Origin: Octopus vulgaris
Lineage: Eukaryota
Assembly (NCBI GenBank): GCA_951406725.2
Contig: OX597818.1
Span: forward strand, 11,346,001-11,410,000
Direction: 5' to 3'
Length of the DNA: 64,000 nucleotides
Every line of letters begins with the position of its first letter. Positions within the stretch are counted from its first letter, which is position 1. The position numbers and the translations under genes were made by a program. Of the stretch, positions 1 to 59,192 are shown one piece after another. The notes under the pieces were generated by a model, which was not told the origin of the DNA, made no database searches, and saw nothing but the letters and a program-made list of their open reading frames with translations.

Positions 1-1609
1 CCTTCTGACATCATTAATCTGAAGTAAATAATTTCTTTGGTTTTGTTGTTGAATCAAGCATGCCTATTGTTGTTGTTGAATCAAGTATTCAAGTATACAT
101 ATCATCAAAAATCTTCTGGATATAGTGGTTACAGTTTCCTATATATCACTCCTATTTTTAAGACTGTAGGTTTTAATCTGAGTGTGAGCTTTATTGACTT
201 TTCTAGCAGAATGAGCAACCTAATATGAGCTCCATTACACTGAAGCAATGCTGATTCACTAGTTATGATCATTTATACCTATCCTAGTACCTGACTGATA
301 CTTTATTTTATCACTTGAACAAGCATGAAAAAAATGTTAGCCTGAGTAGTTTTTGAACTCAAAATATAACCAAAACCACAACAGAAAAAGAAAAAAAATG
401 TTCAATACTCTAACAATTCTGCCAATTTATCATGATTGTTGCCTGTTTCTCAGTAATAAAGCAAATATACAGACACAACTTTTGAAGACATATGTGAAGA
501 AAGGTACTGTACTAACAATGGTCAGGTAGAGGTCATTCAGTCTTAAAACCCAGTGTTGAATAATATCTGCTGGATATTTGAAGCTACATCTAATGATCTA
601 GGTATATTTTTTACTCTACTGCAGAGTATGTTTAGTTGAATAGTGTAGACTGCCAATAGTTTCATTTGTAATGTGATTGCTTTATAGTAACTTTCTTTCA
701 TTTATTCATCAAATTTTGCTAACTGAAAGAGGTAGTGACCTTCCTAACTCAGTGAAATTGATGTCATTAACATTCCACTCAAATTGTTGTTGCAAGTTAA
801 CTCTAATGAAAAAACATGCAAGGAGAGAATTCCAGAGGGCTGATGTTCTGGGTATAGTGGTTCATGTGAGTCTTGGCTATTAGACACAATACAGGTAATA
901 AAAGGAAGAGAAGTGAGTTGAGATTGCTTGAGTGGTAGTGATGGTGGTAGAGGTATAAAATCATCCTGCTCTGAGGAACAGAGGCCAATGTATTAACAAT
1001 GGCAAAAGCAGTGAGAAGACACATGTCTGTGGGTCAGAAAGTGGAGTGTGTTTGTGAATGATTTCATGTCATTTAGTTGAGAGGCCTTTCTCTGAATACA
1101 GTTTAATTTGTCTGTGTGTGTGGTAGCAGCATTGTCCCAGATGGGGCAGCAGTACTCCATTATGCATCTTACTTGAGCTTTGAAGAGGTTTAGTGGTTCT
1201 CAACTTAAACTTTACAGAAGCTTTGTAGTTCTCTGTCTGTCTCTTCTTCCCCTCCATTCCTCTTGTACTCTCTCATTCTCTATCTTTGTACTTCCTTCCA
1301 CTCTCGCTATGATATATTATAGTTGCAGTTTAATTCAGATGCATAACTAGATATATGACAGCTATACACATATGATCAAGGAGCTGCTATATGGTTGGTA
1401 GACCTGCTAGAAATAGCAACTAAGTCTCCTTCAAATCATATTTTACTGTCCTATGCAAAAGAGGAAAATAGTCTGTCTGATTAGGGGTCAAACATACCTC
1501 CCAAGTGGTATCTGTCTATTAGCTGTCCAATAGAAGTTAGTTAATACTGTCTATGGCTACCATCTTCAGACTTATACCATTAAGCATTATTACTTCATAG
1601 ACATAATAA

Positions 1610-1760
1610 CTAATATAATTCAGGATTCACATCATGATAATTCATGATATTATTATATTCTAAGATTATATCATGATAATCTGTGATTGTAACATGGTAA
1701 TCTGAATTTATATCATGTTAATCCAACTTTATATCATGATAACATCAGATTATATCAGGC
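1610..1760. repeat. Degenerate ~21-bp minisatellite (ATTATATCATGATAATCTGAG-like)
   Basis: About six diverged copies of (T)TATATCATG(A/G/T)TAAT seen in tandem. Confidence 0.6.
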
Positions 1761-2511
1761 TAGGTATCTTGGAACCATATTGCATATCACCATGTTTATA
1801 TTTTTTATTGTGCATTTTGTTTCTCTTCTGATTTTTATTGCTTCAGTTTTTATGTACATGAGTGACAGCACATTTATTTCTTCCTATTTTAGAAGTATCT
1901 TTTGATAGCACTCTTTGGTTCTCTGGCCATCTTCATCTGTTCTACTACTTCTGTTGCATATAATCTACACACATTGTTACTCAGCTCTTGTTCACTGTTT
2001 CACTTCTACTCAGTAACTTCATTGTTGGCTAAGAAATTGTGGAAGCACACTTCAGTAGCCCAAGGGGGAAAGCTCCTCTCATTCTTATTATGAACCACAC
2101 TGTTTATTTCAAATTGGAGTAGTTTCTTTACAATGGATACAAAGAGAAAGGAGAAATAGAGAAATGGAGAGATCTATATGGATCTGAAGTCAGAGTTGGG
2201 GGGAGTGATACATCCAGGATAGAAAGAGAAATTTGGGAAAATTAAAGGGAGTAAGGAATGAGTGATATATTTTATAATTCTTTGCCTGGTGGGTTTGTCT
2301 ATTTGTTTATTTTCTTAGTGTTGTTCATGCAACTGCTTTTCCATCTGATTTCTAGAGGTCTCAGTTCACTTACGTTTAGAACAGGTCGCTGAAGGTCTTT
2401 CCACAGAACATAAGCTTCTTAAAGCAGTATCAGACAATTGATTTTCTGTCCTACATTTTCTTTTGTTACTGCTGAAATTTTCATAAATCATGGAACAGTC
2501 ATTTGCCCATG

Positions 2512-2569
<58 letters not shown>

Positions 2570-2645
2570 CATTTCTCTATATATTTATCTATCTATCTAT
2601 CTATCCATTTCTCTATCTATTTATCTATCTATCTATCTATCTATC
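2512..2645. repeat. (TCTA)n microsatellite
   Basis: Direct reading of the tetranucleotide array. Confidence 0.95.
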
Positions 2646-3644
2646 TTATAGATATATGTTTATGTGTGTGTGTGTGCATCATCTTCATAATTCAACATCC
2701 ATGTTCCATGTTGGTATGTGTGTATATATATATATATATGTATAGCTTTGAACAAATATATATATATATATTTGTTCAAAGCTAGATTCACTCCATTGCT
2801 ATGAGCTTTACGAACTGTAGCTTTGTTCAAGTCACAAACAGTTTCATTGAATTAATAAATATAAACTAAAACATATACCAAGCACTTTTTCTTCCATTTT
2901 TACACCCAAATATATACATTGATACACTCACCCATACATGTGTGTGTATGTGCATACAAACACCAATACATATATAGATGTGATACAAGCACATAAGCAC
3001 AGTATACATAATTACAGTCACACACGCACACATATGAACTTATCTATTTAGTCAGTTTTGATGTACAGTATATTATAATTATAAGCATTTTTGACATGAC
3101 CATCTCATCACTTTATTGTCAGTTTTTGTATATCTGATATTATATTGTCCTATATATCCTTCTTCTGCTAAGGCAGTAGGGTGAGGTCTGGTGGTGATTT
3201 GGCTGCTATGTCTGACAAGTTGAGTGATAACATTGAAACTTTCTTATTTAGCTTCAATAGATCTAGTTTTCAACTGAAGGTTGAATTAAAAATAACAATT
3301 TCAAATAATCTAATATTTCTTTTTTCCCCTGTTTTATTTGAGGAATTCTGTTAATATATTTTTCTTTGTTGAAAAACAAAAACATTATCTGTTATTTTCT
3401 CTATTTGTTTCTCACTCTTTTGCACACACTCTAGATATCTATCTGTCTGGCTGTGTATTTATCTATATTATCTTGCAGTCTGTCTTCCTTTTTCTCATTG
3501 GTTCATAACCAATATCTAAATATCTAAAACAGCAATACCTACATCCAAATAAATAGAGTCATTTCTTTATAGAAATATTTCTTTGAAATTTTATAATAGA
3601 TTGTGAATGTATGCAACATGTATGTGATTGTATAATTGTGTGCA

Positions 3645-3689
<45 letters not shown>

Positions 3690-3696
<7 letters not shown>

Positions 3697-3844
3697 CGAC
3701 AGGCTTCTTTCTGTTTCTATCTACCATATCCACTCACAAGGCTTGGTTGGCCCGAGGCCATAGTAGAAGACACTTGCCCAAGGTGCCACACAGTGGGACT
3801 GAACCCGGAACAATGTGGTTGGTAAGCAAGCTACTTACCACACA

Positions 3845-3845
<1 letters not shown>
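3690..3845 (-). mobile_element. SINE family A (tRNA-derived, CORE-like), 5' half
   Basis: Reverse complement TGTGGTAAGTAGCTTGCTTACCAACCAC..GGTTCAGTCCC (B box)..GGCACCTTGGGCAAGTGTC matches the copy at 48583-48965. Confidence 0.85.
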
Positions 3846-3875
<30 letters not shown>

Positions 3876-3893
3876 TATATATTTATATATAAT

Positions 3894-3941
<48 letters not shown>

Positions 3942-4817
3942 TGAGGTCTGATCAATAAGTATCCAAGTTGTTGCCATAGTAACGAAGCTAAAGCACAGAG
4001 GGAAGTAACTTTGCAAAGATTCACCTGCACACTAAGTTTTAATGTTCTAGCTCACTTCTGCTGTTTACTGCAGCACTTGGAAGGAAGGTGTGTAGCATGT
4101 GACTGTCGCATTGACCATGACAGAGAAAGTTGTCTTGACGATACCTGCTCAGACGTCTATGCAAAGTTGGAGAAAGTGTATAGAGAGGGGTGTATGAGAT
4201 GCACACAAGTGTACAAGTGGTTCAGATATTTTTAAGATGGCCAAAAATTGTCCATATTGATGAACGTTCTCTTGAGACGTGCAATCACTAGAACTAAGAA
4301 AAACATCACAGTTGTGATTGCAGCTGTGAGGGGAAATCGTCGACTTACAATCCATGAGTTATCTGAGGATGTGCAGATTAGTTACAGTTCAGTTCAGTCC
4401 ATTATCACTGAAGATTTGGGTATGAGACACGTGTCTGCCAAGTTTGTGCCAAAACTGCTTCAAGCTGACCAAAAAGACTCTCGGGTTTCAGTTGCACAAG
4501 AGTTCCTTGATTGTGTTGAGAATGATGTAGACTTTTTGAAAACGTTGCATAGGCTTCTGAGCAGGTCTCGCCAAGCTTTTGGCAAAATTTGATGCAGATT
4601 CTCCGCTCAGCATTCTCTGTCATGGTCAATGCAACGATCACATGCTACACACCTTCCTTCCAATCACTGCTGTAAACAGCAGACGTGAGCTAGAGCGTTA
4701 AAACTTAGTGCACATGCACAGCAGAGTTCAAGGTTAATCTGTGACAAGCAGTTTTACTCTGCATGCTTTAGCTTTATTATTATGACAACAGTCTGGATAC
4801 ACATTCATCAGATCATG
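3942..4817. mobile_element. Non-autonomous mariner derivative with two 5' ends (foldback)
   Basis: Inverted arms 3942-4169 / 4541-4817 begin with a mariner-type TIR (GAGGTCTGATCAATAAGTATCC). The + strand encodes a transposase HTH region (QVYKWFRYF; RRLTIHELSEDVQISYSSVQSIITEDLGMRHVSAKFVPKLL). The - strand arm encodes MTENAERRICIKFCQKLG. No DD34D catalytic domain is present. Confidence 0.9.
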
Positions 4818-5329
4818 TATATATGTATTATAATGGGGGAGGCTGGTTTACATTAACTGCTCCACATCTTAGAGTGTGCTTCTCTAGATTTATGTTTTTC
4901 TACAAATTATATATATATATATATATATAGATAGATAGATAGATATATTATAACCTCTTCTCTATCATCACTGTCTCTCTTCTTTCACTCGGTTACATTG
5001 ATGTAACAAATGAGACAACATAGAGTAGTAGGAACTCTTTGGCTATTCTGGCTTAAAACAATGTCACTAGTGTTTAGTGTCAGGATAGGATATCCCTCAT
5101 ACACTTCATAAACTGGTTGGCATACAAACAGAGACACTGTAGTGTTGAAATGATGACTGCAGGGTTGACTTAATTCTTGCCAAGGTGCAGAACACCCTCT
5201 TTAGTGCTTTCAGCTAGTATAGGAGCAGTATATATAGTCTTTAGTTAGTAACACTTTTATGTAAACAAATGGATTGAAAATTACAAACATGATAAACAGT
5301 TGGGACATTTTTAGTAAAAATATCTGGAG

Positions 5330-5740
5330 GAGACCCGTCAAAACCAAGTGAAATTGTTGTCATGGCCAATGCCAATGTTGCGTAATTGGCACCTGTGCTG
5401 GTTACATGTAAAAAGCACCCCTTGAATGTTGGACCTCATGGAGTAAGTGACAAGAGACCGAGACATTTGGTGATGTACCATGCTTGAGAAGACTTGTCGA
5501 GCCAAGTGATATCATAGTCATGGCCAGTGCTGGTGTTGTGTAACTGGTAGCCATACCAATGGCATGTGAAAAGCACCCACTATACTCTTGGAGTAGTTGG
5601 CATTAGGAAGGGCATCCAGCCATAGAAACCATGCCAAATCAGACTGGAGCCTGGTGCAGCTTACCAGTTTTCAGTCAAACCGTCCAGCCCATGCCAGCAG
5701 GGAAGCTGGATGTTTAATGATGAGGATGATGATGATGATC
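5330..5740 (+). mobile_element. SINE-like family D with RTE-type 3' tail and internal ~150-bp tandem duplication
   Basis: TTGGCATTAGGAAGGGCATCCAGC motif; tail CCATGCCAGC..(GAT)n resembles the RTE 3' end near 28980; other copies at 18262-18645, 33868-34080, 62780-62990, 63850-64000. Confidence 0.75.
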
Positions 5741-5809
5741 TGTGACAAAATTTTCATGGTATCATGTTGAGACTTTGCAAGTGATGTTGAGGCTTTGGAG
5801 TGAACAAAT

Positions 5810-6015
5810 ATTGGTTTCAAGGACAGCAACTTTGGGGGAAGAGGGTAAGTTGATTACTTCAATCCCATTGCTTAACTGGTACTTATTATATGGACCCCCA
5901 AAGGGATGAAAGGTAAAGTTGACCACAGTGGAATTTCAACTCATAATGTAAAGACAGACGAAATGCCACTAAGCATTTTGTCTGTCTTGCTCATGACTCT
6001 GTCAGCTTGCTATCT
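5810..6015 (-). mobile_element. SINE family B
   Basis: Reverse complement matches the family motif GAGTTCAAATTCC..GTCGACTTTGCCTTTCATCCTTTCGGGGTCGATAAAATAAGTACCAG seen more than 10 times in the window. Confidence 0.8.
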
Positions 6016-6058
6016 TAGAGCGAACAAATATTATAAGTATAGATGATTTCTATACGTA

Positions 6059-6796
6059 CAAGTTTCATGGCCCAAAGCAATCTAATAATTGAACATTGCC
6101 ACTTGAAAGAACATATGTGTGTTAGTCATGTAACAAATTTTGTCTGTCTGTTGGTAGTCTGCAGAAACATGTCTCTTTACACAACACCAATTGTCATGAT
6201 TCTATATTGCATTTAACTGAGAAGAGATGTGAGTTATGGTATAAGCTTGTAGACTGTGGCTTGACATACATTATATTATACTGTACATCAAGCCATCATT
6301 TCTATGGAAAATGGTAGAATTTCAAGGTATCTACTTTACTGGGAATATTCTGGTAAAAGACCCATCTCACAAACTCAAGTTAAGATAGACTATTTTAAAT
6401 CTGATCTGTAGAAAGTATTATTTGTATGGAATGAAAAAAAAGAGAAAAGATATTGACTGGGCATCATGGAAAAAAATTATTTAAAGTATTCAAGTATTTT
6501 GAAGAGAAATGAAACAAGATATAAGAAAAGAAATTAGGCATTAATAATCTCTCCAAATATTCTACTGGCAATTCTAAGTCTTTCTGAGATAGGTCTAGTT
6601 AGCCATTCAAGTCTCATGACCCAAAGCAACCTACTAGTTAACCATTGCTACTTGAAATAATGTATGTGTGTTACTCATGCAACAGGTTTTATCTGTCTCC
6701 TGGTAGTCTGCAGAGACATGTCACTTTATACAGCATCAGTTGTGATGATTCTACATTGCATTTAACAAGGAAGAGATCTGAGTTATGGTACAAGCT
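6059..6796. repeat. Diverged ~190-bp direct repeat pair (6059-6247 and 6608-6796)
   Basis: Both copies run CAAGT.TCATG.CCCAAAGCAA ... GGTAGTCTGCAGA.ACATGTC ... GAGTTATGGTA.AAGCT, roughly 80% identical by eye. Confidence 0.85.
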
Positions 6797-7182
6797 ACAA
6801 AGGAAAAAAAATCAGCTAGGCTAAAAAGTCTGCTTCACCTTGATGCTCATTATGAAGCAATGATCATGCCCTTTATTGAGTTTGTTAACTTCTCTTTTTA
6901 TCTTTTGCTTGTTTCAGTCATTAGACTGTGGCCAAGCTTAATCAAACTAATCCACCCCTGTACTTACTTTTTAAGTTCTGTACTTATTTCATCAGGCTCT
7001 TTGGCTGGACCACAGGTTAAGGGTATGTAAACAAACCAACAAAGGTTGTCAAGCAGTGGTGAGAGACAAGCAAATACACATAGACACCCACTCATAGAAA
7101 TATATATATATGGAAAAGTGGATGTTAAAATGATCATGCTGATGATATGTATATACACTTGTGTAGGTACTGATATATATAA

Positions 7183-7233
<51 letters not shown>

Positions 7234-8069
7234 CATGCATACATACATATATATATACATATATATACACACACACACATATATATAGGCACATACCTAC
7301 ACTTACATAAATACATACTTAGACATAAAGCAAAATAGAAGGATACAGATAAACAGGGAGCAGAGAGAGAACAACATAAAGACAGGAGGAAGGCAGTAAT
7401 GCTGAACAGAAGATATGCTTGCTATGAAGAAAGAATACACTCAACCCTGGAATCAATATATTTACCTTCTTTATCGTTTGATACAATGCATCCCCAGTGA
7501 CTTCACTGTACTATGTATATCAATAACAAGCAACTTAGTTTATCTCAGCAAGGAAAGCTAAGATAATGAAAGCATAGCGGAAAGTGCATAAAAAATGCAA
7601 TAAAACACTAAAAGAAGAGGAAGTAGAAAGACTATCGCTACCATGACCAGTTTTGTACCTTAGTATCATCTTCTACCTTACTCTCACCTCTACTCTTCAT
7701 CTTCTGCCTCTCTCCTTTTTCAATTTTATAATAGTCTTAGTATAAAAGATATGCTCCCAAACAGAATGAATAAGGCTGTAGTTAGAAAATATGAAACTCA
7801 CACACACACAGACTAAAGCACACACAAATGCAAAAACTGGCACTCATACTTTCAGATGTGTTTTTTTTTTCCAATGTGTTGGTCTTATGTCATTTGTAAC
7901 AGATATGTTATTACTCAAATATGAAGCTAAGTAATAATGTGTTAATCTCTACATTCACCATATTTGTATACTTATATTTTATTCTTCACCTGTATTGAGT
8001 ACAGTTTGTTGATGTAAGTTCCTTTACAATACTAAATGCATGCACATGATTGCTTATAATATATTGTGA

Positions 8070-8255
8070 AGGCACATGGCTTAGTGGTTAGGTATTTAGC
8101 TCATAATCATAAGGGTGTGTGTTCTTTTCCTGGTGGTACATTTTGTGCTTGAGCAAGACACTTTATTTCATATTGCTCCAGTCTGCTCAGCTGGCAAAAA
8201 ACATGTAGTACCTGTATTTCAAAGAGTTAGCCTTGTCGTAATTGACAGAGTGCCA
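8070..8255 (+). mobile_element. SINE family C (tRNA head + CORE-like), partial
   Basis: A-box-like TGGCTTAGTGG, TTGAGCAAGACACTTTATTTCA; similar to 18694-18990. Confidence 0.75.
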
Positions 8256-8258
8256 TTT

Positions 8259-8297
<39 letters not shown>

Positions 8298-8298
<1 letters not shown>

Positions 8299-8537
8299 TT
8301 TACTTGTTTCAGTCATTTGACTGTGACCATGCTGGGGCACTACCTTGAAATTTTAGTTGAATGTACTTAATTTTTTTAAAGCCTGGTACTTACTCTATCA
8401 GTCCCTTGTACCCAATCACTAAGTTACATGGATGTAAACGCACCAGTTGTCAAGTGCTGGTTAGGGACAAACACGGAAACAAAGAAATACATACACACAC
8501 ATACATACATACATACACACACACATATATATATATA

Positions 8538-8603
<66 letters not shown>

Positions 8604-8756
8604 ATGGGCTTTTTTCAGTTTCTGTCTACCAAATCCACTCATAAGGTTTTGGTTGGCCCGAGGCTATAGTAGAAGACTTACCCAAGGTGCCATGTAGTGG
8701 GACTGAACCCAGAACCATGTGGTTGATAAGCAAGCTTCTTAACCGCGCAGCCATGT
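8298..8756 (-). mobile_element. SINE family A, full length with internal TA/CA microsatellite
   Basis: Both the tail (TTTCAGTCATTTGACTGTG..) and the tRNA-like head match 48583-48965. Confidence 0.85.
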
Positions 8757-9873
8757 CTGTGTCTATGCATACAAATATATATATCTATAAATATGCACAC
8801 AAATACACACATCTATACATGCACACACACACTCACATATATATAAATATATATACAAATTTTGGCAGTATTCTCATGATCTGTATTCCCTCTAAGCTAT
8901 GTACTTGTGTACACACATACACTCACTTTACAATAAGTACACCAAAAAAAAAAAAAAGTGCACACAATGTTTTTTTCATGATGAAATCAAATTTTGGGGG
9001 TTTAAAGAAGTTTGAACAGTAGTTACTTACATTGAGGTGCACATGCTTTGCAAAGAAAGACAAAATTTACATACATGCAAATTTATGTGCACATCCACAG
9101 CAAAAAAAAAAAAATTACAGGGGAGTTAGCTCATGTTTGTGTGTGTGTATATATGTGTAAGTATATTGCTTCAACATGGAAACATAATATAGTCAAGTAT
9201 ATATATATTATAATACACACACATTTTATATATGCTCTCCCTAGAGATGGACCCATTTTTCTGGCATTAATGTGTATATAAAATTAGGTGCAGATGAGAA
9301 CATTATATATGCAGTTTGAGAGTATTATTGATTTTTTATACATGCCAGTTTTGCCACAATCTTTTTGCTGGTCTTGTTAAATTCTACTGGAATCTACCAT
9401 GACCAGCAAAAAATTTGAGAAAACTCAATACTATCTCTCTGTTTACAATCCAGTTGCTTACTTAAACTACAGAATTGAACATCAATGATTGAATTCATAA
9501 GAAGGCTATAATGTTATTCGTGAAGGGAAATTCCATAGATATTCTTTTATGTTTTACTTGTTTCAGTCATTAGACTGTGGCCATGGTGGGGCACCACCAT
9601 GAAGAATTTTTTGTTGAATGAATTGACCCCAGTACTTAATTTTTGTTAAGCTTGGTGCTTATTCTATTGGTCTGTTTTGCTGAACTGCTAAGTTACAGGG
9701 GTGTAAACATAGTAACACTGGTTGCCAAGTGCTGGTGGGGACAAACACATGTGGCTAAGAGTTATTTTGACTCTTATTTCTAGCAGTGCTGGTGCTAACT
9801 TGCACCCTTAGTCACTTCAGTGACAACTGTTCTTGTGCCTTTTGCTTGTAAATTGCAACTAGCCACATTAATA

Positions 9874-9919
<46 letters not shown>

Positions 9920-9932
9920 GTGTGTGTGTATG

Positions 9933-9972
<40 letters not shown>

Positions 9973-12229
9973 CAGAGAGAAACAGAGAAATTTATATGTC
10001 TAATATAGTAAATGCGAAAACTAATTTCTGTGTGTCAGTGTCACACTTTGACCCCCCACTCACTATTCAATGACACTTCCTCGTTCTGGGGTGAGAGTAA
10101 TAGTTGGCATAGAGACAGTGAGGGTGGTGGCAAAGACAGACAGACAGAGAGTGAGAGAAAGAAAGAAAGAAAAAGAGCGGGAGAGAGAGACTAAGAAATT
10201 TAGGGAGAGTTGATGATGTTTTATTAAAAGTAATAATGAGAGAGAGTGGGTATATGGGAGAAAGAGAGGGATTATGTACTACTTTCCTGGACGGAAATTC
10301 CTGTGGCCAGCATACTGAACACTATCATTTTATATATATACATGTGTGTGTGTGTGTACATATATACATGTACATACACACACATATATGTATATAAAAT
10401 ACACTTTAATTGAAATACATTTATCAAATCCACTCACAAGGCCTTAGTTGGCCCAAGATTATTGTAAAAGACACTTGCTCACAAAATAGTCATCTATTCA
10501 CAAAGCAAGGGTCAACCTGACGGTATACTAAATAACACTTAACCAAGATACTGGAATCAAACCCAGTACTTCATGATAGTGAAACAAACGTTTTAACCAC
10601 ACTAACATAGATTCATACATACACATGAAGGAAGAAATCAAGAAAATAAATGACTTTGAGACGGAATTGGAGGGAGACAGTTAAGGAAGAGAAAGAGACA
10701 GACAGACTTTTTATCTATCTGACTATCTATGACCACATTATTCAGTGTCTTTTCTGTTTTAAGACATAATCTATTATGTATAGACGTGTGTGTATATTCT
10801 GGTTTGGTCTAAAATTAGGGGATGTGCCCATAGCATTTGCAGAGTCTCTGAGATAGGAAGATTGATACACTAATATTCTACTTACACTGTTGCCAGTTAA
10901 TAGTTGCAAGAAAAGCCCAGACAGGGTAGAAATTCTAGAGAATTGCATTTTGGATGGTTTGGATGTTACAGCAGGGGGTTTGAGAGTTGAACACAGTATT
11001 GGTAACAAGAGGGAAAAGAGTCAAGGGAGTCTGAGTAAAGTTTGTTTGAGACCAACCTTCTCTGCAGAGTAGAGGTAATTATAGTTGCAGCACAAAAAGT
11101 ATAGAGGAGACAACACATCTGTGTGTAAGCAGTTAAAGTGTTGATGAACAACTTCATGCCAATCAGTTGGATAGTATTGCATTGCAGTCTAAGATATTTG
11201 TATGTGAGTGGTCACAGTAGCATGATCAAAGATATAGGGGCAGTGCTCTTTGTTGGGTCTAAAATGTGCTTTGAAAAAAGTGTTAGTCATTGGTGAGGAA
11301 CTGAACCATTGTCTGGCTATGAAGAGGAAAGTTAGTCTTTGAGATATTGTCTTAGCTGTGATGAAGATGTGTCCACTAGGAGAGATCTTTAGTAATTTGG
11401 GGATCCTTGGTGCTGTTGATTTTTTTTTATTAATTTTTTTACGTTAAACCCAGAGGAAACTGTGGCATATTAATGAGGTGTGAATACAGATAGAATAATT
11501 TGCTGTATCCTGCTTCCTGATATACAAACTCTTAAACTATATATGTTCTATTTAAGTGTGAACCATAGGCAAACAGCCTCAAAACATTAATATCATGAGT
11601 ATTTTGAAAAACAGTGACAAATGTGATATTAAAAACTGAAATTACTAAAAATTTATTTTCATGCAATTTACTGTCTATTTAACTGCAATTTGTAGTCCAT
11701 TTAGATGCATTTTTTGGTGCACTCAACTGTTAATGAAAAGAACATTTTCTTCTCATGACAAAAAGATATAACTAATATAGATTTTTTTGCTATTTAATTC
11801 AGAGAGAATCTTTACATGTGTGTGTACATGTAGGGAGGGAGAGACATAGTTTTGAACTGTAGGCCTATGTATTCATGTCCATAAAACTGTTTGGGCATTT
11901 ATGAATGTATGTATGATTAGAATGTAATATAAGTCTGTGTAGGGTAGAATGATTTCTTGATTGGTTTTAGAATTTTTTTTTTTAACCTGCCATCTACTTG
12001 GTTGCTTGGTTTCTTTTTACAAAATGTGTTTTGGAATATAGTAACATTGCCAATGCTTGTGTGTTTACATATGTATATGTACCTATAGATCATTGGCATG
12101 ACCAAATGTTTGCTTTGCATTTATGAGATCCTAGGTTTGATCCTTTGGGCAATCAAACATTTCTGCCAAAGCAAGATATGTGAGTGAAATCAGGTAAATG
12201 GAAATTGTATGGAATCCCATTGGATGGAC

Positions 12230-20982: not shown

Positions 20983-21241
20983 TGTTTACGTACACACACA
21001 CACATATATATATATATACATAAATATATAAATATATATATACACACACACACACATATATACGCATACACATGTATGTATATATACATAAATATACATA
21101 TATATATAAACACACACACATATATATACACACATACATACACACACACGCACACACACATACATATAGATATATTGTTTTTAGAAACGCATAAATCCAG
21201 AGAAGCACACCCTAAGAAGTAGAGCAGTATATATTTTTCCC

Positions 21242-21316
21242 GGTCTATGGGGTTACCTTGGGTTTCCCATCCATAAAGGGTTTAACTTTATGGCATATCA
21301 TCAGATCCCAAGATCT
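21242..21316 (-). ncRNA. Type I hammerhead ribozyme
   Basis: - strand: AGAUCUUGGGAU CUGAUGA UAUGCCAUAAAG-loop-CUUUAUGGAUGG GAAA CC CAA GG UA^ ACCCCAUAGACC. The core is intact and stems I, II and III can form. Confidence 0.85.
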
Positions 21317-22034
21317 ATTGGCCTATGACCTCTTTAAAATATGGCAGGGAAAAGTCTGGATTGTCTTCCTTTGCCAATGGCTATCGGCTTCCAGCCATAC
21401 TGCCATCGTTTGACTGTGATGGAGAGCAATAGGGGATTGTCTCCCTCTCCCGTTAGCTATCAACTTTTGACAATTCCCAAAAGGCCAGCAGAAATCTCCT
21501 AAAATGCAAACATGACCCAAAAACTTCTGTTCTGGTGTTAAGTATAGCCCTTGGTTTGAGTGAGTCCCTTAGGATTCTCATGCATTCAGCTATGCATAGC
21601 TTGCAGCATTTCGTCTTGTTGATGTAGGGGCCTGAGTTTTCGAGAATTTTCCATGAGATTGAGTGTGGAACTCCGTTGTCTTTTAGTTGCCAAACGTGGC
21701 TGGCCAGTGATGTTGCATATCTCCTTTCTGGAACTCTGATAGAGGATCCATGGTTCCAACCATACTTAACCCCAGAATGGAGATTTTGGGGCCATGTTTG
21801 CATTTTTGGGGATTTATGCTAGCCTTTTGGTAACTGCCAGAAGTTGGCAGCTAACAGGAGGGAGAGACATTCACCTATTGTTTACCATCAAAGCTGAATG
21901 ATGGCAGTACGGTCAGAAGTTGATAGCCATTAGCAAAGGGAGACAATCCAAACTTTCTCCTCCATATTTTAATGAGGTCATAGGCCAACAGGTCTTGGGG
22001 GTCTGACAATATACAATAAAGTTAATCCTTTTAT
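21242..22034 (-). mobile_element. 5'-truncated Penelope-like element with an inverted copy of its 3' end
   Basis: ORF 21453-21803(-) has the GIY-YIG C-terminal signature TSLASHVWQLK..ISWKIL..Y..CKLCIAECMRI..LNTRTEVFGSCLH. Inverted arms about 21272-21546 / 21761-22034. A hammerhead sits in the 3' UTR. Confidence 0.88.
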
Positions 22035-22099
22035 GTACCAGCCTTCACCAAGAAAAAAATATATATGTATATATATATATATATGTATATGTATGCATG

Positions 22100-22349: not shown

Positions 22350-22356
<7 letters not shown>

Positions 22357-22585
22357 CAAATCAGAAAGTCGAGAGGATACAAAATCAACAGACATCAGCC
22401 GGTAAACATTCTAGTATGTCTATTTATTCCAATGCATTAGATGAATACATGTATTAGTAGTACAGAAATGAGTAATACATGTGTACGTATACATCTAATA
22501 CACTGGAATAAATAGGCATACTAGAATGTTTACCGGCTGATATCTGTCGATTTTGCATCCTCTCCACTTTCTTATTTGCCATATA
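22350..22585. repeat. Foldback (palindromic) element with ~100-bp arms
   Basis: GGCAAATCAGAAAGTCGAGAGGATACAAAATCAACAGACATCAGCCGGTAAACATTCTAGTATG.. is reverse-complemented at 22484-22585; starts directly at the end of a (TA)n array. Confidence 0.92.
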
Positions 22586-22800: not shown

Positions 22801-25800
22801 AGGGGAAAAGTAAAAAGAAAAAGAAAATGCACATTAGATATAAAAAATAAAGGCTTTTTTAAGAAAAGCAAAGTTATATACATACAATTAGATGACTTGA
22901 GGTGGAATTATCAAGTATAAAAATTATTATTATGAATCATTATAGAGAATCAAATTCATACCGGTATCATCAGAGCTGATCACTGGCTTTGAATGAACAC
23001 CAATTTCCAAACAGTGTTGGGTCTAATAGTACCTAAGTGAAAAGATTACATGCAAGGAAAGTAAGCAGTTCTGGAAGTGATGCAATTAAGGTAGATATAA
23101 ATACTGGAATATGAATGGTGTATGGGATATATGGATATTAATGAGATTATTGGTGGTATTGGTAAGGCTAGTAGTGTCCTGTATTAAGTTGTGTGTTCAT
23201 GTTGAGTTGTGGATGATATTTATTAATGAAAGTTGCCTCTTTATTTATTTTGCTGTACTGAGGTATTCTGTGAACATTGATAAAAAGGGAAAATTAGGAA
23301 GTTCAGTTTAAGGTTCCCAGCACATCTTTCTATGTTCTCACTGACCTCTGTCTGTCTATATTGTGGGTGGCGGATTTGTTCTTTGTGAAGAGCTATTCTT
23401 CGTCAGAGTGATATTTCTGTTTGGCCTCAGCAGGTAATAGCATAGATTAAGTTTTCAGAAGCACAGGTGAACTTTGATTTTATCTTAAATATTTCACCTT
23501 GTTTGAAGTGAAACTCTGTACCCTCCAAAAGATGAGGGCATGTGCCACAGGCTGCATTTTTTCACTTTTGGTTTCATTGTTAATGAATATAGTCTTGCAC
23601 TGGTTAATATTTTTTCAATGATTTCTGTTGCATTTTGCTCTTGATAATTTTGTGTGAGCCTAAAATTTTGTTCATTGTTTTATCGCCAGTGAGAATGGGT
23701 AGATTTTGGATGATGATGTTTAAGGCCTCTTCGTTTCTAGGGTTGTGTGTGGAGATGTATGGGAGTATTTTTAAATCTGGTGTAATATTTCGGTTAACTT
23801 CCCTTAATGTTTGTGTCTATTTCCTTTGCTCGTTTAATCCCATCATTTATTAATGATGTTGGGTAATGTCTCCTGATTAGTGTTGATTTAAGTTCAAGGA
23901 GTCTTCATTCATGAGTATTGATATCTGAAACTATGGTACAGATTCTTTTCACTAGCTTATAAGGTATATTAATTTTTATATGTTTGGGGTGGCATGAGTT
24001 GAATAATAGGTATTGTTTTGAATCTATGGGTTTATAGAAGTTGTCCATTTTGATGTGGTTATTGATTATTTTAATTAGAATGTCAAGAATAGGAAGTTTT
24101 TTTATTGCTGTGTTCCATGGTGAATTGTATGTTGCTATTGATATTGTTGAGCATTATTTTGAAATCAAGGACTTTGTCCATGCTATTGTTCCAAATTATA
24201 AAGCAATCATCTAAGTATCTCTTCCAGTTCTCCTTTAAATAGCAATGAAATGAGGTACCATATTTTTGTAGTGATGATTGGTATATTTTAAGTTCTAGGT
24301 AACCCATTACAAGGTTCACAATCACTGGTGCAGCTCGAATTCCCATTCCAATTCCACATTTTTGTTGATAGTAAACTATATCGAACATGAAATAGTTGTT
24401 CTGTAGGATAAATTTCAGTGCTGCAATTATGAAGTTGTGGTTGATGAGTCCTGGGTTCTCTTCTGGGTATTTTTCTAGCCAGAAGGAGATTGCTTCTATA
24501 CCATAATCATGTGAGATACTGGTGTACAAGTTCACCACATTGAATGATACTAACAGGGTTCCTTCATTTATTGTTTTCAGGAGTTAAGCATGTCTAAATC
24601 ATCCCTGATGAAGCTTTTCACATATTTTTTAAATGGTTTGAGTTAGATGTTGAGGAAATTGCTCAAACGGTGGGTTTCACAAGCAGGGCCACCAGCCAAG
24701 ATGGGTGTTAGTTTGAGGTCAGTAGTGGGAGAATCTTTGCAAGCTTTAGAAATATGTAGATATTTGTGTATTTTAGGTAATCCATAGAATAGACTTGGTC
24801 TGTATTTAAAATTTGATAAATAATCATTTTTTTTTTTAATGAGGCCCTTTCCATGTATTTGAAGTAAGGAGGATAAGATTTTAAGTGTCTTCTGTGGGTT
24901 ATAGCGCTCTATCTTCTCATAGTAAATATTGTTTTCCAGCATGGAGAGTATTTAATTTTCATAGTACTCTGTGTCCATCACTACTACCACACTTCCTTTA
25001 TTGGCTTCTTTAATGGTCAGGCTTATATCATTTTTTAACTTGATTAGCTTTTTCCATTCATTTGTGTTGAAGTTGGATTTAATTCACTGTTTTTGTTGGG
25101 TATTAAATGGGAAATTGGTAATGTTTCACAAAAGTCATCAAGTGCTTTATTTCTGCCTTTTGTAGGACAATATTCGCTTTTGTTTTTTTGCTATTGAGTC
25201 ATCTTCACTGGTGTAGTTGTGAAGTGCTTCTGTGAGGCACAATTTTCGGCAAAAATCCATAGTGTTATCCTTGATTTCATTTGGGTTCAATCTGCAAGGG
25301 GTTGGTGTGAACTTCAAACCGCTTGCTAGAATTTTTGTTTGTGTAATACTTGGGATTTTCTTTGATAAGTTGATATTTCCAGTTGTTCATGTATATTTTG
25401 TTCCATTTCACATCTCTGTTTCTCTGATTTAGGTCTAAAAAATGGTTGTAGTAGGTGGATTGTTGTGGAAAGTCTTGTATTTAGTTTGGTGTGGAATAAT
25501 TGGGTGTAAAGTGCATCTGTGGTAGTATATTTGTTGTGGAGTGACTGTGTTGTGGACTAGATTGTGGTTATTATGAGGGTTGTTATATTGTCTATGGTTG
25601 ATGTGGTTTGGGTTAAATTTACTGCTAATTTTGTAAAGCAGACAGAGGGTGAAGTTATGTTGCTTAGTTAGGTTATGTCTAGTTGAATGCTTGAAGTATC
25701 CATGTTGAAAGTCAAGTCTCGGAGGCAAATTTTTCCATTGTCTGTCAGGCGATGGAGGTAGATTGGTAGGTAATGGTTCTTGAAAGTTTTGGTTAGTCTG

Positions 25801-25938
25801 GAGGCTTTGATGGATCTTTTGATTTGTGTCAGTGAGCACATAGAAAGATGTGCTAGGAACCTTAAACCGAACTTCCTAATTTTCCCTTTTTATCAATATT
25901 CACAGAATACCTCAGTACAGCAACGATTAAATAAAGAG
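22801..25938 (-). mobile_element. Near-full-length decayed Penelope-like retroelement (Neptune-like; RT + GIY-YIG)
   Basis: Frameshifted - strand motifs in order: INLS..GLKFTPTP, NKGSVVVVMD, FYGLPKIHK, NLYTSI, GIGMG, RYLDDCF, FNSCHPKH, CGTC linker, FTCASENLIYAITC, KEATFINKYHPQLN. An inverted copy of 23238-23345 lies at 25828-25938. Confidence 0.93.
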
Positions 25939-26061
25939 TCAATATACAAAGAATATTAAATTTCATACAAAAAATGTATATATGTAAACATACAAAAAAG
26001 TCCAGCTTGCATAGAATAGAATTGATATCAAGAATTAAAGGGGTTGAAAAAGAGTATGACA

Positions 26062-52720: not shown

Positions 52721-53025
52721 CAGGGGTTGGATGAAATAATGGAAACACCTTAAAATTTCGAACAAATTTCTTTTAATATGGGGTAGGACTGCCTTTGGCA
52801 GTAATTACAGCTTGAATTCTATGAGGTACGGACTCGTACAAAGTTTGAATTGTTTCCAAAGGAATTTTTCTCCATTCTTCAGCTTAAATAGTCTCCAGTT
52901 CTTGTAGTGATGATGGCGGAAGATATCGACTCCTTACTTGTTTTTCTAAAAATGCACCATAAATGTTCAATAATATTGAGATCTGAGGACAGTGGTGGCC
53001 AGATAAAATGTTCAACTTCACTAGA
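52721..53025 (-). mobile_element. Tc1-family transposon 3' end fragment
   Basis: - strand WPPLSSDLNIIEHLW..SLQELE..EEWRKIPLETIQTLYESVPHRIQAVITAKGSPTPY*, then a TIR ending at TA|CAGGGGTTGG. Confidence 0.9.
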
Positions 53026-56000
53026 ATTAGAGTTAACAGTTCTATCTAAATTCTTCCATTGCGCAATATACACACATTGGTGTACAATTGTGTTTACACT
53101 TATATATATAATTTGCATCCACACACTTCACAGTTACAAAAACATTGAACTTATGAATGAATAGAAATTTGTGCTATCTTGTTAAATTAGGTATGCTCAA
53201 AGTGGATATTGCTTTAGAGAAAGAGTTGTTTGTTCATGTAACATAAGTGATTTAAAAATAGCTGCAGGTGTAAGAGTGTTCCATTCCTATGGACAGTCAG
53301 ATCTTGAAAAAAGTTATTCCACAGATTCTGATTTAATTTCAATTTCAATGAGCTTGTTCATAAAAATGGGGTTAAGTTAGGTTGAGAATACTGGATGAAA
53401 GACTAAACTTCAAGGTGGATAGTGCTGAATAGTTTCACACAGTTGTATGTTTGTATATTTGTTTACAAAATACATCCTTTACATTTTCAGAACCTTATAT
53501 CAGAAACTATTTAATTAAAAAAACAATTGTTGACAGCCAGAAAGAATCAAGAATTGATTTCCTTATTTGAAATATATTCCTTCATTGTATTTGAGTACAT
53601 ATCACAAGGCTAACAAGGAAAAACAGTTAATTTCTTATGTTATTGTGTTGTTTTGCTCTTCTTCTTTTTTTTCTGGTTGAATCAAGTTGTAGAAATTTGC
53701 TTTTAATTTGTATTTTTGCAATGGAAACTTTGAAATTTACTTTGAAGAGTTCAGTAATACACATAAACTCATACAACAAATTATATATGCATATATATAC
53801 ATATATATATGTATGTATGTATGTATGTGTGTATACACACATATACAAACATACTACATACACTTTGTCACGTTTTACAACCATTTTTACATTTAGAATT
53901 ACTCATCAGGTTAATTTATGTAAAGCATTATATATTTTTCTTTTTCTTGTTAACAATTAACTTGTTCATGACATTCTTTGGAGACATTTAACTTGCTTTT
54001 TTCCATTTCTTATTCACTTTCTGTTAAAGTTTCTACAATTTTATAATACACTGTTTCAAATTAAATGTCTCACACTACACAAACCATATGTAAGTTGGTC
54101 ATTCCTACCTCACCTTCAGCAGTTATAAAAGTATTGGTTTATCTTAAGTAGTATAAAGACTTAAGTTGATAGATTCACAAGAAAATCTAATTTTTCAAGT
54201 TAAATTACATAGAACAAGTTTATATTATAAGAAAATGTCCATCTGTCTAATAGTCTGGCAACATTCTTCACCAACACTACAACCATTTACCAGACAATTT
54301 CCTCTGCACCTCCTCTGCCTCTTCTATTTTTATAACAAATATAACATTGGTTTCTGCTCCTCTGAACTTACTGACCATGTACCACTCAACCATTTTACTC
54401 AACTCTACTGTATTCTTTCCCACAAGACCTGATAATAAACTACATATTCCTATCTTTCTTCAAAACTCTCTCTCTCTCTCTCTATCTCATATTGTGAATA
54501 TAATAACGTAGGATTTCTAAATCTCACAAAGCTGCCTGTTTTTCCCAGTCTATAATGTTCTAAAAGTGCTTTAGGTGCAACTTTTCCATGTCAAAATAAT
54601 TTACAAAAAAAATTAAAATAGAACAAAATCAATATAGCATAAAAAATTAGCTACTATAATCAATTTTTAAAAAACTGAAAATTTTTTGGCAGGTGAAATA
54701 AGTTAATACAAAACCTAAATGTTTCATGTTCTATAATTAATTAAAGTTATTTTTATTATGGTATGGCAGTCAGATATCTCTCTCTTTAATTTATTTTTTT
54801 CTATATAATTCCATTCTTTGAATTTACTGTTTAAGTTATATGAGTTGTCTTTTGCAGAAAATAGGAATTAATGTATATTAAAATATGTTTGAAAACATTC
54901 TGTTAGTAACAATATAGGTAACAGTTATACCATAGTTATGAGGCTTGAAAATTTATTTATTAACACTTCACCCAACATTTTGGAATTGCTATTTTACTGT
55001 TTGAAAGATAATATCATGTTTCAGGACATGGGTGATGCAAATATCATCTCATGCCCTACTAGGGCAGAATCTCTCTATGTAGCATAGCTGGAAAAAGTTT
55101 TGTTCAGATTCTTATCAACAAACTGTAGAAGTTGGCTATACATGAAAGGGCAGTAAGAGGCACTGTGACTTCTAGTGTATGACTTTTTACTAGTGTTTAT
55201 TGATTATAATTACGGTATTGAAAATATTTGCTCATCTTGTAGAATAGCCCAATTTTTACCAGTTCTTCAAAATTGGTACTCAATTTTGTGAAATGTCACA
55301 ATGTCATACTTTAATATAACTAGCTGTGGAACAATGAGAAATGTATCTGTATTTCATATTCATGATAGAGATAGAACCCAGTTCACTTGCAGAATTAATT
55401 TCCAACTGGAAATCTGGGTGATTCTACATGAGAGCCATATAATCAAATGTTAGGCTATTTTAATATAAAGGATTTTTTTTTGTTTTTTTTTCTGTTATAA
55501 AACAGATTTTCATCATTTTAAAGAAACTGCTTTACTTTTCAATAATTATCAATGGTTTCTATGCCAACCCAGAAATTCTTTGCTATCTACCATTGGCTTC
55601 CACTAACACCTCACTTCCTTATCTATCTCTATTTCTAGCTGACCTTTGTTGACCTCGACCTGACCAGGAATGTCTCCTCAGTTGTCTCTTTTCTGGATAC
55701 CTATTTAACAAGCACAACTGTGTCTCTCCACAAGGCAGATTCTTCTCACTTACTCACACCTACCACACAAGCCAACACTGACACCTTCCTCCCCACTGCT
55801 AGCGCAGATAGTATATGTAAAGCATCTACTTCTCGTGGCACACAAACAACTAGAAATAGTTCTTTACCTATCACATCACCTTTCACCCACTATCACTGCT
55901 TTGCACTCAGCAAAGACTTTCAATAATTCCCAGCCTAGCTGCACTATGCACTCTTCATTATCTACTGCTGCAACTAAGCTTTCAGGTAGATGTCACTATC

Positions 56001-58749
56001 TCATTCCCTGTCCAAAAGTATTTGATATTCACAAAGCCAACCATGTAGATCTTATATATAAAAATTATTGCATATGATCATTATGGTAGACTATGAAATA
56101 TAATAGTTCTCAGTTTTCAGTTCTAGTTACTTTGTTTTATGCTTTTTTTCCCTTTTTTCTTTTCTTTTTTTCACAAAACATCAAGTGAAAAGAAATCGTA
56201 TAAAGATACCATGGATGACTAAGTCACACATTAAAATGATAGAGCTGCTATTGCTATATGCTTCATGATATCACAAAGTCTTTACTATAACTTTGAATTT
56301 TGGAATTTTCTTTCAGATTTTCTGTGTTTAGAGTTATATGAGACTTCACAAGTGGTTTGAGTTCTACAAGAAGAAAAGAAAACAAATTATTGAATGTTTA
56401 AAACTATTGATTTATAGATATAGTGTGTCTGCAGACTACAAGTAACCTATCATCTCCACTAAAATTACAAGATTTTTCCTTTTTAACTTGCCGATAGCTA
56501 TAAGAAGTTTTGTATTAATGTAATCAAGACATTTTTTTTTCCTATTGTATAAACTAAAATATATGACAGCTTTTGTGACACAGACTTGTCATTAATATAA
56601 AAAATATATAATATAGACAAATAAAATATTTTAATCTGAGTTTTGTCTTTCCACTATAACATAATTATACATAATATTATCTAAAAGTATACATTTTAAG
56701 CAAATTCATTATCTAATATAGAACACTTGGCAATTAGTTCTTAGAATCAGTCAAAGTTATCCCCTAAGCTATCAAGAGAAAATGATTTCATAATGAGGCA
56801 AGTAATGAGGAATCTAGGAAATAACTGGGTAATTCTGGAGGTGCTTATTTATTATTTACTTTGAAATCTATGTTAAATATAATTGGATAGAATTGTGTTC
56901 CTATTACCAATTTGCTTTCAACCATTTGAAGTTTGTTCATTTAGATAACATTAATGATGTACAAGGTGAAACTATTTTAGAACCGAATACAGATATTGAT
57001 ATTCATTTTTGTTTTTATGCTTCTTCTAAGATTCATCAATAAGAAATGCTTTTACTTCTTTTCCTTAATCACAAATCATCAAATATAAAGATAGATAACT
57101 TTACCTTGATCACAAACAAAATGATAAACAAAAAGAAATTTCTATTTTTATTAATAGTTGCCTTAATCATAAACTTATATGAAACATTGCTTTTGGGTTT
57201 ATCTTGATAAAAAAAATCAATAGGTATAGAAATTTTAGTATGATAACCTTTAGCCCCAGATAAGCAATATAATCAAGAGATCAAAGAATATTTCCTATAT
57301 TTGAATTATTTGGAGAGCTTGTGTTTAATTTAAGTTTCTATAGCATTTAGCTGATCGGAGACAGCATTTGCTCCTGGATAAGATTGCAGTCTATTACAGA
57401 CAAATTCTCTAAAAAGCTCTGGTTTCTATTATTTAAACTAGTTGGAGCTAAATGTATAAAGTGTCTCATCCAGAAACACAACAAAATGCCTCACAAGCCA
57501 GGAATCAATACACTATCTTCACCACAAATCAGTTAATGTAGAAATTTTCTATTATAAACTTTATGCTCTGATAAGCAGCAATAATATATAATCCTTAGAA
57601 AGATATCTTAAATCCCACATGAGCTCATATAATATATTTCCCTTTAATGCAGTCTTGACCTTTTAACCATAGGCATAGAAATGTTACTATTGTAAACGTT
57701 ATCCTCATAAAACTGATATAATACATTGGCCTTTATATTGGCATAACCTTAAATCAATATTTTGAGAAATTTGCTATTATAAACCTTACTTTAAATCACA
57801 GATGAACTGATACACTTTGGATTTTCAACTATATTTCATTTGCACATTACATTTAAATATTGTATTCTATAAACAGTATACATCTATCTGACTCATTGCT
57901 TTAAATGACTCGCAAATTCAACATATGCATATTCAAAAATTTCTTCCTAGCTTATTAATTTTTTTCTCTTTTCCTTTTATTTGTTTTATCTGGGGTTTTT
58001 TAACTTTAAATTCTTAGTACTGCCACCACCACTATCTTATATTCATTTTCTAATTTGATTTGATTCCACATAATCATTCCATTTCAATTAATCTTGCAAT
58101 TTCGAAACTTATCTTCAGCATATCTTCTGAAGGTCACAAATGTTCCCATTAAAGAGCTTAATTTCATTTCTTAAGCCAAATTTTATTATCTTTCTTGTAG
58201 ACTGGCACAGCTTAATTTTCTATACTCAATGATATAAAGACAGAAAAATAAATTAAAAAACAAACTAAAAATTACATTTTTTGACATCAAATTTCCAAAG
58301 TCAGCTAATTCCATAGAAAGTAATTAAAATATACATTTGATTCTAATGTAGGCTATTAAGAACAAATTCTTTATGAGTTATATAAACAGATTTGTGGGGG
58401 TTAGATAAGAAAATGTTTTATATATATTGGCTATCCAGACGATGTCTAGAATTACATATTAGCTTTTGTATGTGTGTGTGTGTGTGTGTCCACACATGTG
58501 CATTTGTGTTTGGGGGGAATCTTATTACCAAGGCTAGTGTTATTGACATAGTTTAGAATCCAAACTACTTGCAATACCATATTTAAAGTTCATTGGTTCC
58601 AAGTTCTGAGTCCATACCTTGCAGAGAGGAATCAGTTTGGTTTTCATCTTAGTATAATTGAAATAACTAATAGTTAAATACTGTGGTTGACTGAGTGTTC
58701 TATACAGCCCCTCACTCTTAAGCATATTAGTTTTCTTACTAATTTGGTT

Positions 58750-58939
58750 TTGTAGTAAGAAATTTGCTTCCCAACCACATGGTTCCAGGTTCAGTCCCAA
58801 TGCATTGTACCTTGAGCAAGCATCTTCTTCTATAGCCTTGGCTGACCAAAGCCTTTTGAGTGAATTTGGTTGATAGAAATTGAAAAACTGAAAGAAGCCT
58901 GTTGCACATATATGTATGTCTTTATATATGTGTGTATAT

Positions 58940-58980
<41 letters not shown>

Positions 58981-59192
58981 TGTGTTTCTGTTTGCCCCCT
59001 CCTCAACTGCTTGACAACTGGTGTTGGTGTGTTTACATCCCAATCACTTGGCAGTTTAGCAAAATACACTGATTGAATAGTACCAGGCTTTAAAAAAATT
59101 AGTACTGGGGTCAATTAATTTAACTAAAATTCTTCAAAGCACTGCCCTAGCATGGCCTTAGTCTAATGACTGAAGCAAGTAAAAGATAAAAG
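58750..59192 (+). mobile_element. SINE family A, full length
   Basis: CCAACCACATGGTTCCAGGTTCAGTCCC head, TA array, tail ..AATGACTGAAGCAAGTAAAAGATAAAAG. Confidence 0.85.

Follow-up and report, generated by a model that had tools for sequence, protein, structure and literature searches.

A probable Hydra-clade Penelope-like relic, folded back on itself, in a TA microsatellite of Octopus vulgaris

The 64-kb stretch of Octopus vulgaris DNA analyzed here (the window) contains a foldback that is very probably an old, 5'-truncated insertion of a Hydra-clade Penelope-like element (PLE) into a TA microsatellite, with the inverted copy that is usual for such elements and, probably, their usual tail. 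This copy is a dead relic and not a replicating unit. Its layout is already known for PLEs: their 5' end bears a 5'-truncated copy in inverted orientation, and a tail of 30-40 bp is often confined to one end (PMC8557442). The first-pass annotation is supported in its view of the locus as the remains of a PLE, whose hammerhead is of the pLTR type and whose 5' end bears its 3' end again in inverted form.

The annotation had also placed inverted arms of about 270 bp around a coding loop, and a BLAST comparison within the window gave two arms of 274 bp each, 81% identical (E 2.8e-68). By BLAST and local alignment, 21272-21545 and 21762-22035 share 273 aligned positions with 51 mismatches and 2 single-base gaps (Table 1). 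A repeat-pair search of the window yielded only microsatellites among the best 25 of 814 pairs, and the arms were not among these. The 3' ends of both arms face outward, as expected if the 5' end bears an inverted copy that is itself 5'-truncated. The loop and the left arm together read as the C-terminal end of an endonuclease, then a 3' UTR in which a type I hammerhead motif is present. In both arms the 3' UTR contains an internal 76-nt duplication (21358-21466 and 21833-21948). A hairpin of 760 bp had been given for 21242-22034; the foldback is real, but the element is probably longer, about 21178-22065 (~880 bp), with the right end at 22050-22065. The window is AT-rich (GC 25-41%) with many TA and CA microsatellites, and a TA-rich microsatellite lies on either side of the foldback; no target duplication was readable within these flanking repeats.

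Contigs from four of 24 DNA runs, each of a different study, were mapped at 80% likeness, one run being read to 76%; one of the four may be the window's own source. An assembly artefact is ruled out, given arms that differ by 19% and a right arm that single-locus contigs from two runs of different studies reproduce with 0 differences over 21773-22050.

Table 1. Features of the foldback in window coordinates
Feature	Position	Strand	Content	Basis
Probable one-sided 3' tail	21178-21227	-	~50 nt	second copy at 4856-4906; contigs of other loci
Family 3' end on left arm	21228-21243	-	followed by A-run and TA run	loose ends of other copies
Putative type I hammerhead homologue	21242-21316	-		core letters; motif scan and folding
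Left arm	21272-21545	-	last 29 codons, stop, 3' UTR with internal 76-nt duplication, hammerhead 5' half	
Open frame, assigned to the C-terminal Hydra-clade PLE endonuclease	21459-21761	-	101 aa, stop 21458-21456	
Loop	21546-21761	-	216 nt, single-copy in the element	arm alignment
Two overlapping 14-nt quasi-palindromes at head-to-head junction	21744-21763	.	second, 21750-21763, spans the junction	
Right arm	21762-22037	+	inverted 5'-truncated copy: premature stop, UTR, hammerhead 5' half with damaged core (CUGACAA)	
Family 3' end after apparent 26-nt deletion	22038-22065	+	A-run, TA microsatellite, no tail	loose-end consensus

The open frame carries C53, C56, E59, N75, C84 and H86, that is, the signature CxxC/E/N/CxH; in the Hydra clade CxxC and CxH flank a conserved E and N (PMC8557442). 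A Pfam scan of the 101 residues gave no match, and neither did a word-index protein search with the frame, for longer or for near-length proteins. In the phmmer search 2396 relatives were found at E<=1e-3, and among the best 150 of them the order CxxC..E..N..E..CxH is present in 129 and a CxCx4-5C linker in 30, many relatives being short fragments. The protein ends no more than 30 residues past CxH in 105 of the 131 CxH-bearing relatives of this set, and only two run on for more than 100 residues. In agreement with this, the stop lies 15 residues past CxH here and is followed by the UTR and the hammerhead, the motif of which lies ~150 nt downstream. Among the matches listed, the closest relative, named from Octopus bimaculoides, is 70% identical over 80 residues. 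Upstream of the matched part, the relative P0122 (Argonauta hians) has a reverse transcriptase (RT) and a CxCX5C linker, and it matches the GIY-YIG domain weakly (Pfam, E 0.0023, below the cut-off); P0099 also has an RT upstream of its endonuclease part. The closest protein, P0002, bears a long Asn/Ser/Thr-rich stretch ahead of the endonuclease, which recalls the N-rich inserts of rotifer PLEs (PMC3846280). Searches of viral and metagenome contigs with the protein, and with a hammerhead pattern of 21 nt, turned up no relatives.

The Hydra-clade signature, the C-terminal position of the endonuclease and the TA-repeat flanks point to a Hydra-clade PLE and identify the frame as the C-terminus of its endonuclease, an assignment made from a fragment, with the region of the GIY-YIG motif, the CxCX5C linker, RWK/DKT and the absence of CCHH lying upstream of the truncation. 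The loop had been described as encoding a PLE GIY-YIG tail. It does belong to the C-terminus of a PLE endonuclease, but the GIY-YIG motif itself is missing from the locus because of the 5' truncation, and the frame is not confined to the loop, reaching 29 codons into the arms. A Naiad PLE, with an N-terminal endonuclease followed by an RT and with no canonical hammerhead (PMC8557442), is ruled out by the stop and UTR that follow the endonuclease here.

Comparison with Hydra-1_Obim of Octopus bimaculoides (PMC8557442, sequence as given there) revealed 54 identical residues of 93 (58%, ungapped hand count), with the blocks RVPERR, CKLC..E and LN.RTE..GSC.HF in common and a 3' UTR stretch that looks similar by eye. 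Both have a TA-repeat target and a hammerhead near the 3' end. However, the Hydra-1_Obim hammerhead differs in stems I-III, no 76-nt UTR duplication is seen in it by eye, and the locus described here is a fragment without an RT. Judging from this identity level and the different hammerhead, the present family appears to be a sister of Hydra-1_Obim and not the same family. Penelope-13_HM, another Hydra-clade element (Repbase entry in PMC8557442), likewise bears an inverted copy at its 5' end, with a hammerhead on either strand; its two hammerheads are listed as identical and its ORF is long, whereas the octopus arms differ by 19% and only one of the two hammerheads is unbroken. Non-LTR retrozymes (bioRxiv 10.64898/2026.07.22.740005) resemble the foldback in being non-autonomous and PLE-derived with a type I hammerhead, but consist of non-coding units repeated directly in tandem, every one of them with a complete hammerhead; the inverted pair, the single intact core and the coding remnant exclude the present element from this class. 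In the literature covered, which left aside most subscription papers and Repbase, no report was found of this octopod family or of a foldback non-autonomous PLE family.

The hammerhead is probably the pLTR ribozyme of the parent family. On the minus strand the 5' strand of stem I (21316-21305) is followed by CUGAUGA (21304-21298), an extra U (21297), stem II (21296-21267), GAAAC (21266-21262), a short stem III with a CAA loop, GUA with A17 at 21254, and the 3' strand of stem I (21253-21242). According to PMC4209133, an extra base after position 9 is shared by PLE hammerheads. A scan of the whole window for the motif, on either strand, gave this match and no other; among 100 locally shuffled versions, 2 gave a match. 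The left arm had been credited with a complete hammerhead. Its core letters and GUA site are indeed intact and stem III has 3 bp, but stem II lacks the closing G10.1-C11.1 pair, which PMC4209133 names as conserved, and its first four positions are not Watson-Crick. The non-canonical stem II may be the family form instead of a product of decay, because only one loop position within 21246-21311 occurs among the best 40 of 383 differences from the family majority; several published Hydra hammerheads are also without a G-C pair at 10.1-11.1 (PMC8557442). The covariance-model check proposed in the first-pass annotation came out negative: Rfam models run over the window gave 0 matches at the gathering threshold and 8 chance matches at E<=10, none of them a hammerhead.

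The right arm carries, as had been noticed before, a broken half of the hammerhead, with a damaged core and without the 3' half. Its 5' strand pairs with the stem I partner at -17.5 kcal/mol, compared with -7.8 kcal/mol for the left arm's own 5' strand; stem I of the left hammerhead is weak. This bears out the earlier observation that the right-arm strand is the better partner, as well as the suggestion that both arms jointly reflect an ancestral ribozyme, one with a better-paired stem I. In the monomer the active-like structure lies 7.9 kcal/mol above the minimum, and in the predicted fold of the whole-element transcript the hammerhead core is paired to the other arm with a probability of about 1.0. 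We take the left hammerhead to be a true homologue that is unlikely to cleave in this copy, and an active ribozyme here is doubtful. Metazoan PLE hammerheads cleave weakly in vitro, as dimers (PMC4209133), and the hammerhead of the anole PAc element needs protein and is dispensable for insertion in vitro (PMC11167929).

The left arm is followed by a probable one-sided tail of the family, 21178-21227, past a short internal TA run. It is 86% identical to 4856-4906 (E 3.5e-11), and the 40 nt before this second copy contain an inverted match to the last letters of the right arm (11 of 13), which none of 1571 control tiles equals. Sequencing depth forms one continuous high stretch from 21180 to about 21345. 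Three of the best 31 of 5510 contig pieces run from 21181-21213 through 21514 at single-locus depth, and these could be one other locus sampled in three runs. The proposed link of the tail to the family draws on few loci. Matches of a 17-nt tail pattern in 10 prokaryotic loci were discarded as chance, none extending beyond 26 nt. The segment 4828-4908 is itself an ~80-bp element between TA repeats, in which an inverted family 3' end (4834-4853) stands head to head with the tail (4856-4906) without overlap; it may be a minimal two-ended insertion of the same family.

The family 3' end on the left arm is apparently about 10 nt short. Loose ends at 21240-21246 indicate that other copies have extra letters there, and one contig has 5 letters inserted behind 21239 that match the end of the right arm. 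At the other end of the foldback, the letters 22038-22050 agree with the 3' end of the family as deduced from loose ends of other copies. Together with the register of the two arms, this suggests that the 3' half of the right hammerhead was lost by an internal deletion of 26 nt, bordered by two GA-like dinucleotides, and not by an early end; a tail-less copy ending in stem II is ruled out by the same match. The loose ends of other family copies in the DNA runs contain TA-rich letters. Among the loose ends over 21240-21345, those of some copies share the hammerhead end but diverge beyond 21344, on its upstream side, or within stem II (at 21278 and 21301), which may reflect several subfamilies, or short elements, with one common 3' end.

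The arms decayed neutrally. Their K2P distance is 0.22, or about 0.11 per arm if they were initially identical, with 39 transitions and 12 transversions among the mismatches; in the 30 shared codons there are 12 non-synonymous or stop differences and 3 synonymous ones. Mismatches that yield G-U pairs are split evenly between the plus (20) and minus (19) strands, and the arm mismatches thus give no hint that the hairpin was under selection or that A-to-I editing preceded insertion, so that an ADAR-edited or selected hairpin is ruled out. CCGG in the left arm and CCAG in the right, with CTGG in the family majority, would fit CpG decay.

Copies of the parent family are abundant, above all those of its last ~170 nt. 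Per run, 936-1681 contigs were placed; summed contig depth, which is no copy number and misses siblings more than 20% diverged, was 6,280-90,144 at hammerhead stem II and 530-10,300 over the loop in the four runs. In one run a joint omitting one 76-nt period occurs at ~10x single-locus depth, which suggests unit variants in the family. The differences from the family majority also speak to the history of the two arms: among the best 40 of 383, the letter is that of the right arm in 14, that of the left arm in 6 and that of neither in 2, while 4 sites have one letter in both arms and another in the majority. This pattern fits one template copied twice and then decaying separately.

The first-pass annotation had left the choice between a single truncated insertion and an amplified MITE-like family. 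The single insertion is favored, and such a family with this structure is unlikely, because the bin with the broken right end has depths of 30, 47, 74 and 8.6, about 1-2x the single-locus contig depth of about 12-19, 24-47, 35-51 and 3.5-9 in all four runs, and because other inversion joints have other breakpoints. Four of the best 15 of 115 joints are inversions in the left arm and loop with breakpoints other than this junction, at about 1-3x single-locus depth. None of the best 31 of 5510 contig pieces crosses the junction 21761/21762, not even from this locus. Four opposite-strand joints between the left and right arms were dropped as foldbacks, being explained by same-sense copies that fit each arm in part.

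Among the rivals, the best surviving one, though distinctly improbable, is that the foldback moves as a non-autonomous unit, being transcribed anew and inserted again in trans through the RT of the family, and makes up a small or ancient MITE-like family. Two of the inversion joints listed do end at 21761, one of them in 2 contigs, siblings of the same age would fall near the 80% placement limit, and trans-mobilized cargo flanked by pLTRs has been reported for a rotifer PLE (PMC3846280). The shared endpoint may arise from the edge of the reference, from a hot spot or from shared descent. However, besides the low depth of the right end, other joints break at 21552 and 21585 and not at 21545, the hammerhead core would be sequestered by the other arm in whole-element RNA, and nothing in the arms points to selection for pairing.

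It is very improbable that two members of the family inserted separately, in head-to-head orientation, into one TA repeat or were fused by a later deletion. While the abundance of the family, its targeting of TA repeats and the 19% distance between the arms would allow this, the junction has no TA spacer and is spanned by a palindrome, the arms share 4 letters against the family majority, and the two-ended layout is seen again at 4828-4908. Least probable of all is that the relic was kept for host use, whether as a working ribozyme or as long double-stranded RNA that serves as a substrate for editing or for small RNAs: about 250 long-range pairs are predicted (-414 kcal/mol on either strand) and the left core letters are intact, but the G-U pairs have no strand bias, the codon changes are neutral, Pfam gave no host exon among 145 of 317 window frames scanned, and hairpin and ribozyme are mutually exclusive in one transcript.

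The preferred reading of one old truncated insertion suggests the following origin. As established for the clade, the RT-endonuclease of an autonomous partner would have nicked TA-rich DNA and reverse-transcribed the 3' end of the element. A first cDNA, begun at an outer start site and including the tail, may have halted after about 580 nt inside the endonuclease, and a second, tail-less copy of about 290 nt may have begun at an inner start site. A short palindrome would then be where the two were joined in head-to-head orientation, through priming on both nicked strands or through fold-back self-priming with a template jump. The element contains 3 quasi-palindromic 14-mers among 797, and two of the three lie at the junction. 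Afterwards the arms diverged without selection, the right arm losing its hammerhead 3' half and the left arm retaining its core in a poorly folding context. In the anole PAc both strands are nicked and extended and two start sites define the tail (PMC11167929), and optional tails and palindromes at inverted junctions have been read as self-priming (PMC3846280). Like the octopus foldback, Adineta vaga Pen2 (PMC3846280) and anole PAc (PMC11167929) show a head-to-head inverted copy, a junction palindrome and a tail at one end, which is probable for the foldback; they belong to other clades, and the putative tail here is about 50 nt and not 30-40.

A more specific proposal, which we consider unlikely, is that the palindrome 21750-21763 is a recurrent fold-back hot spot, three different inversion junctions ending at 21761; it also draws on 4828-4908, where tailed and tail-less ends stand head to head. 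In its boldest form the foldback, or the ~170-nt hammerhead-plus-tail end, would spread as a non-autonomous element of its own, with a hammerhead variant whose stem II would open with four non-canonical pairs.

Several other elements were observed in the window. A second, unrelated, decayed and near-full-length PLE lies at ~22950-25972 on the minus strand, with an RT at 24083-24583 (Pfam RVT_1, E 1.5e-4), its own inverted 5' copy (25840-25972 against 23207-23333) and, at 22973, a CUGAUGA that is not part of a full hammerhead; by its motifs it is probably Neptune-like. Its RT is ruled out as the partner of the foldback, Hydra proteins giving no tblastn match to it at E<=0.01. A DNA-transposon remnant is present at 52882-53127 on the minus strand (DDE_3 match, E 8e-6). 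The frame at 4236-4592 (-), without a Pfam match, is presumably another such remnant, mariner-like by its motifs, and the pieces at 8645-9022 (+) and 58540-59043 (-) resemble an octopus SINE. Just right of the foldback, an inverted repeat seen by eye at 22354-22560 (about 22357-22430 against 22500-22580) is possibly a small foldback DNA element.

The locus itself, one decayed copy with a textbook PLE layout, matters little. It marks an abundant Hydra-clade family distinct from the sole cephalopod Hydra family in PMC8557442, which describes the clade as having few known families. The live lead is the family, with the shared 21761 endpoint, the junction palindrome, the 4828-4908 copy and the excess of hammerhead-plus-tail ends. 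Should the palindrome prove to be where junctions accumulate, this genome would supply natural replicates in large number for studying the origin of the PLE inverted copy and tail, and a genome-scale record of how PLE inversions form, with two start sites and self-priming.
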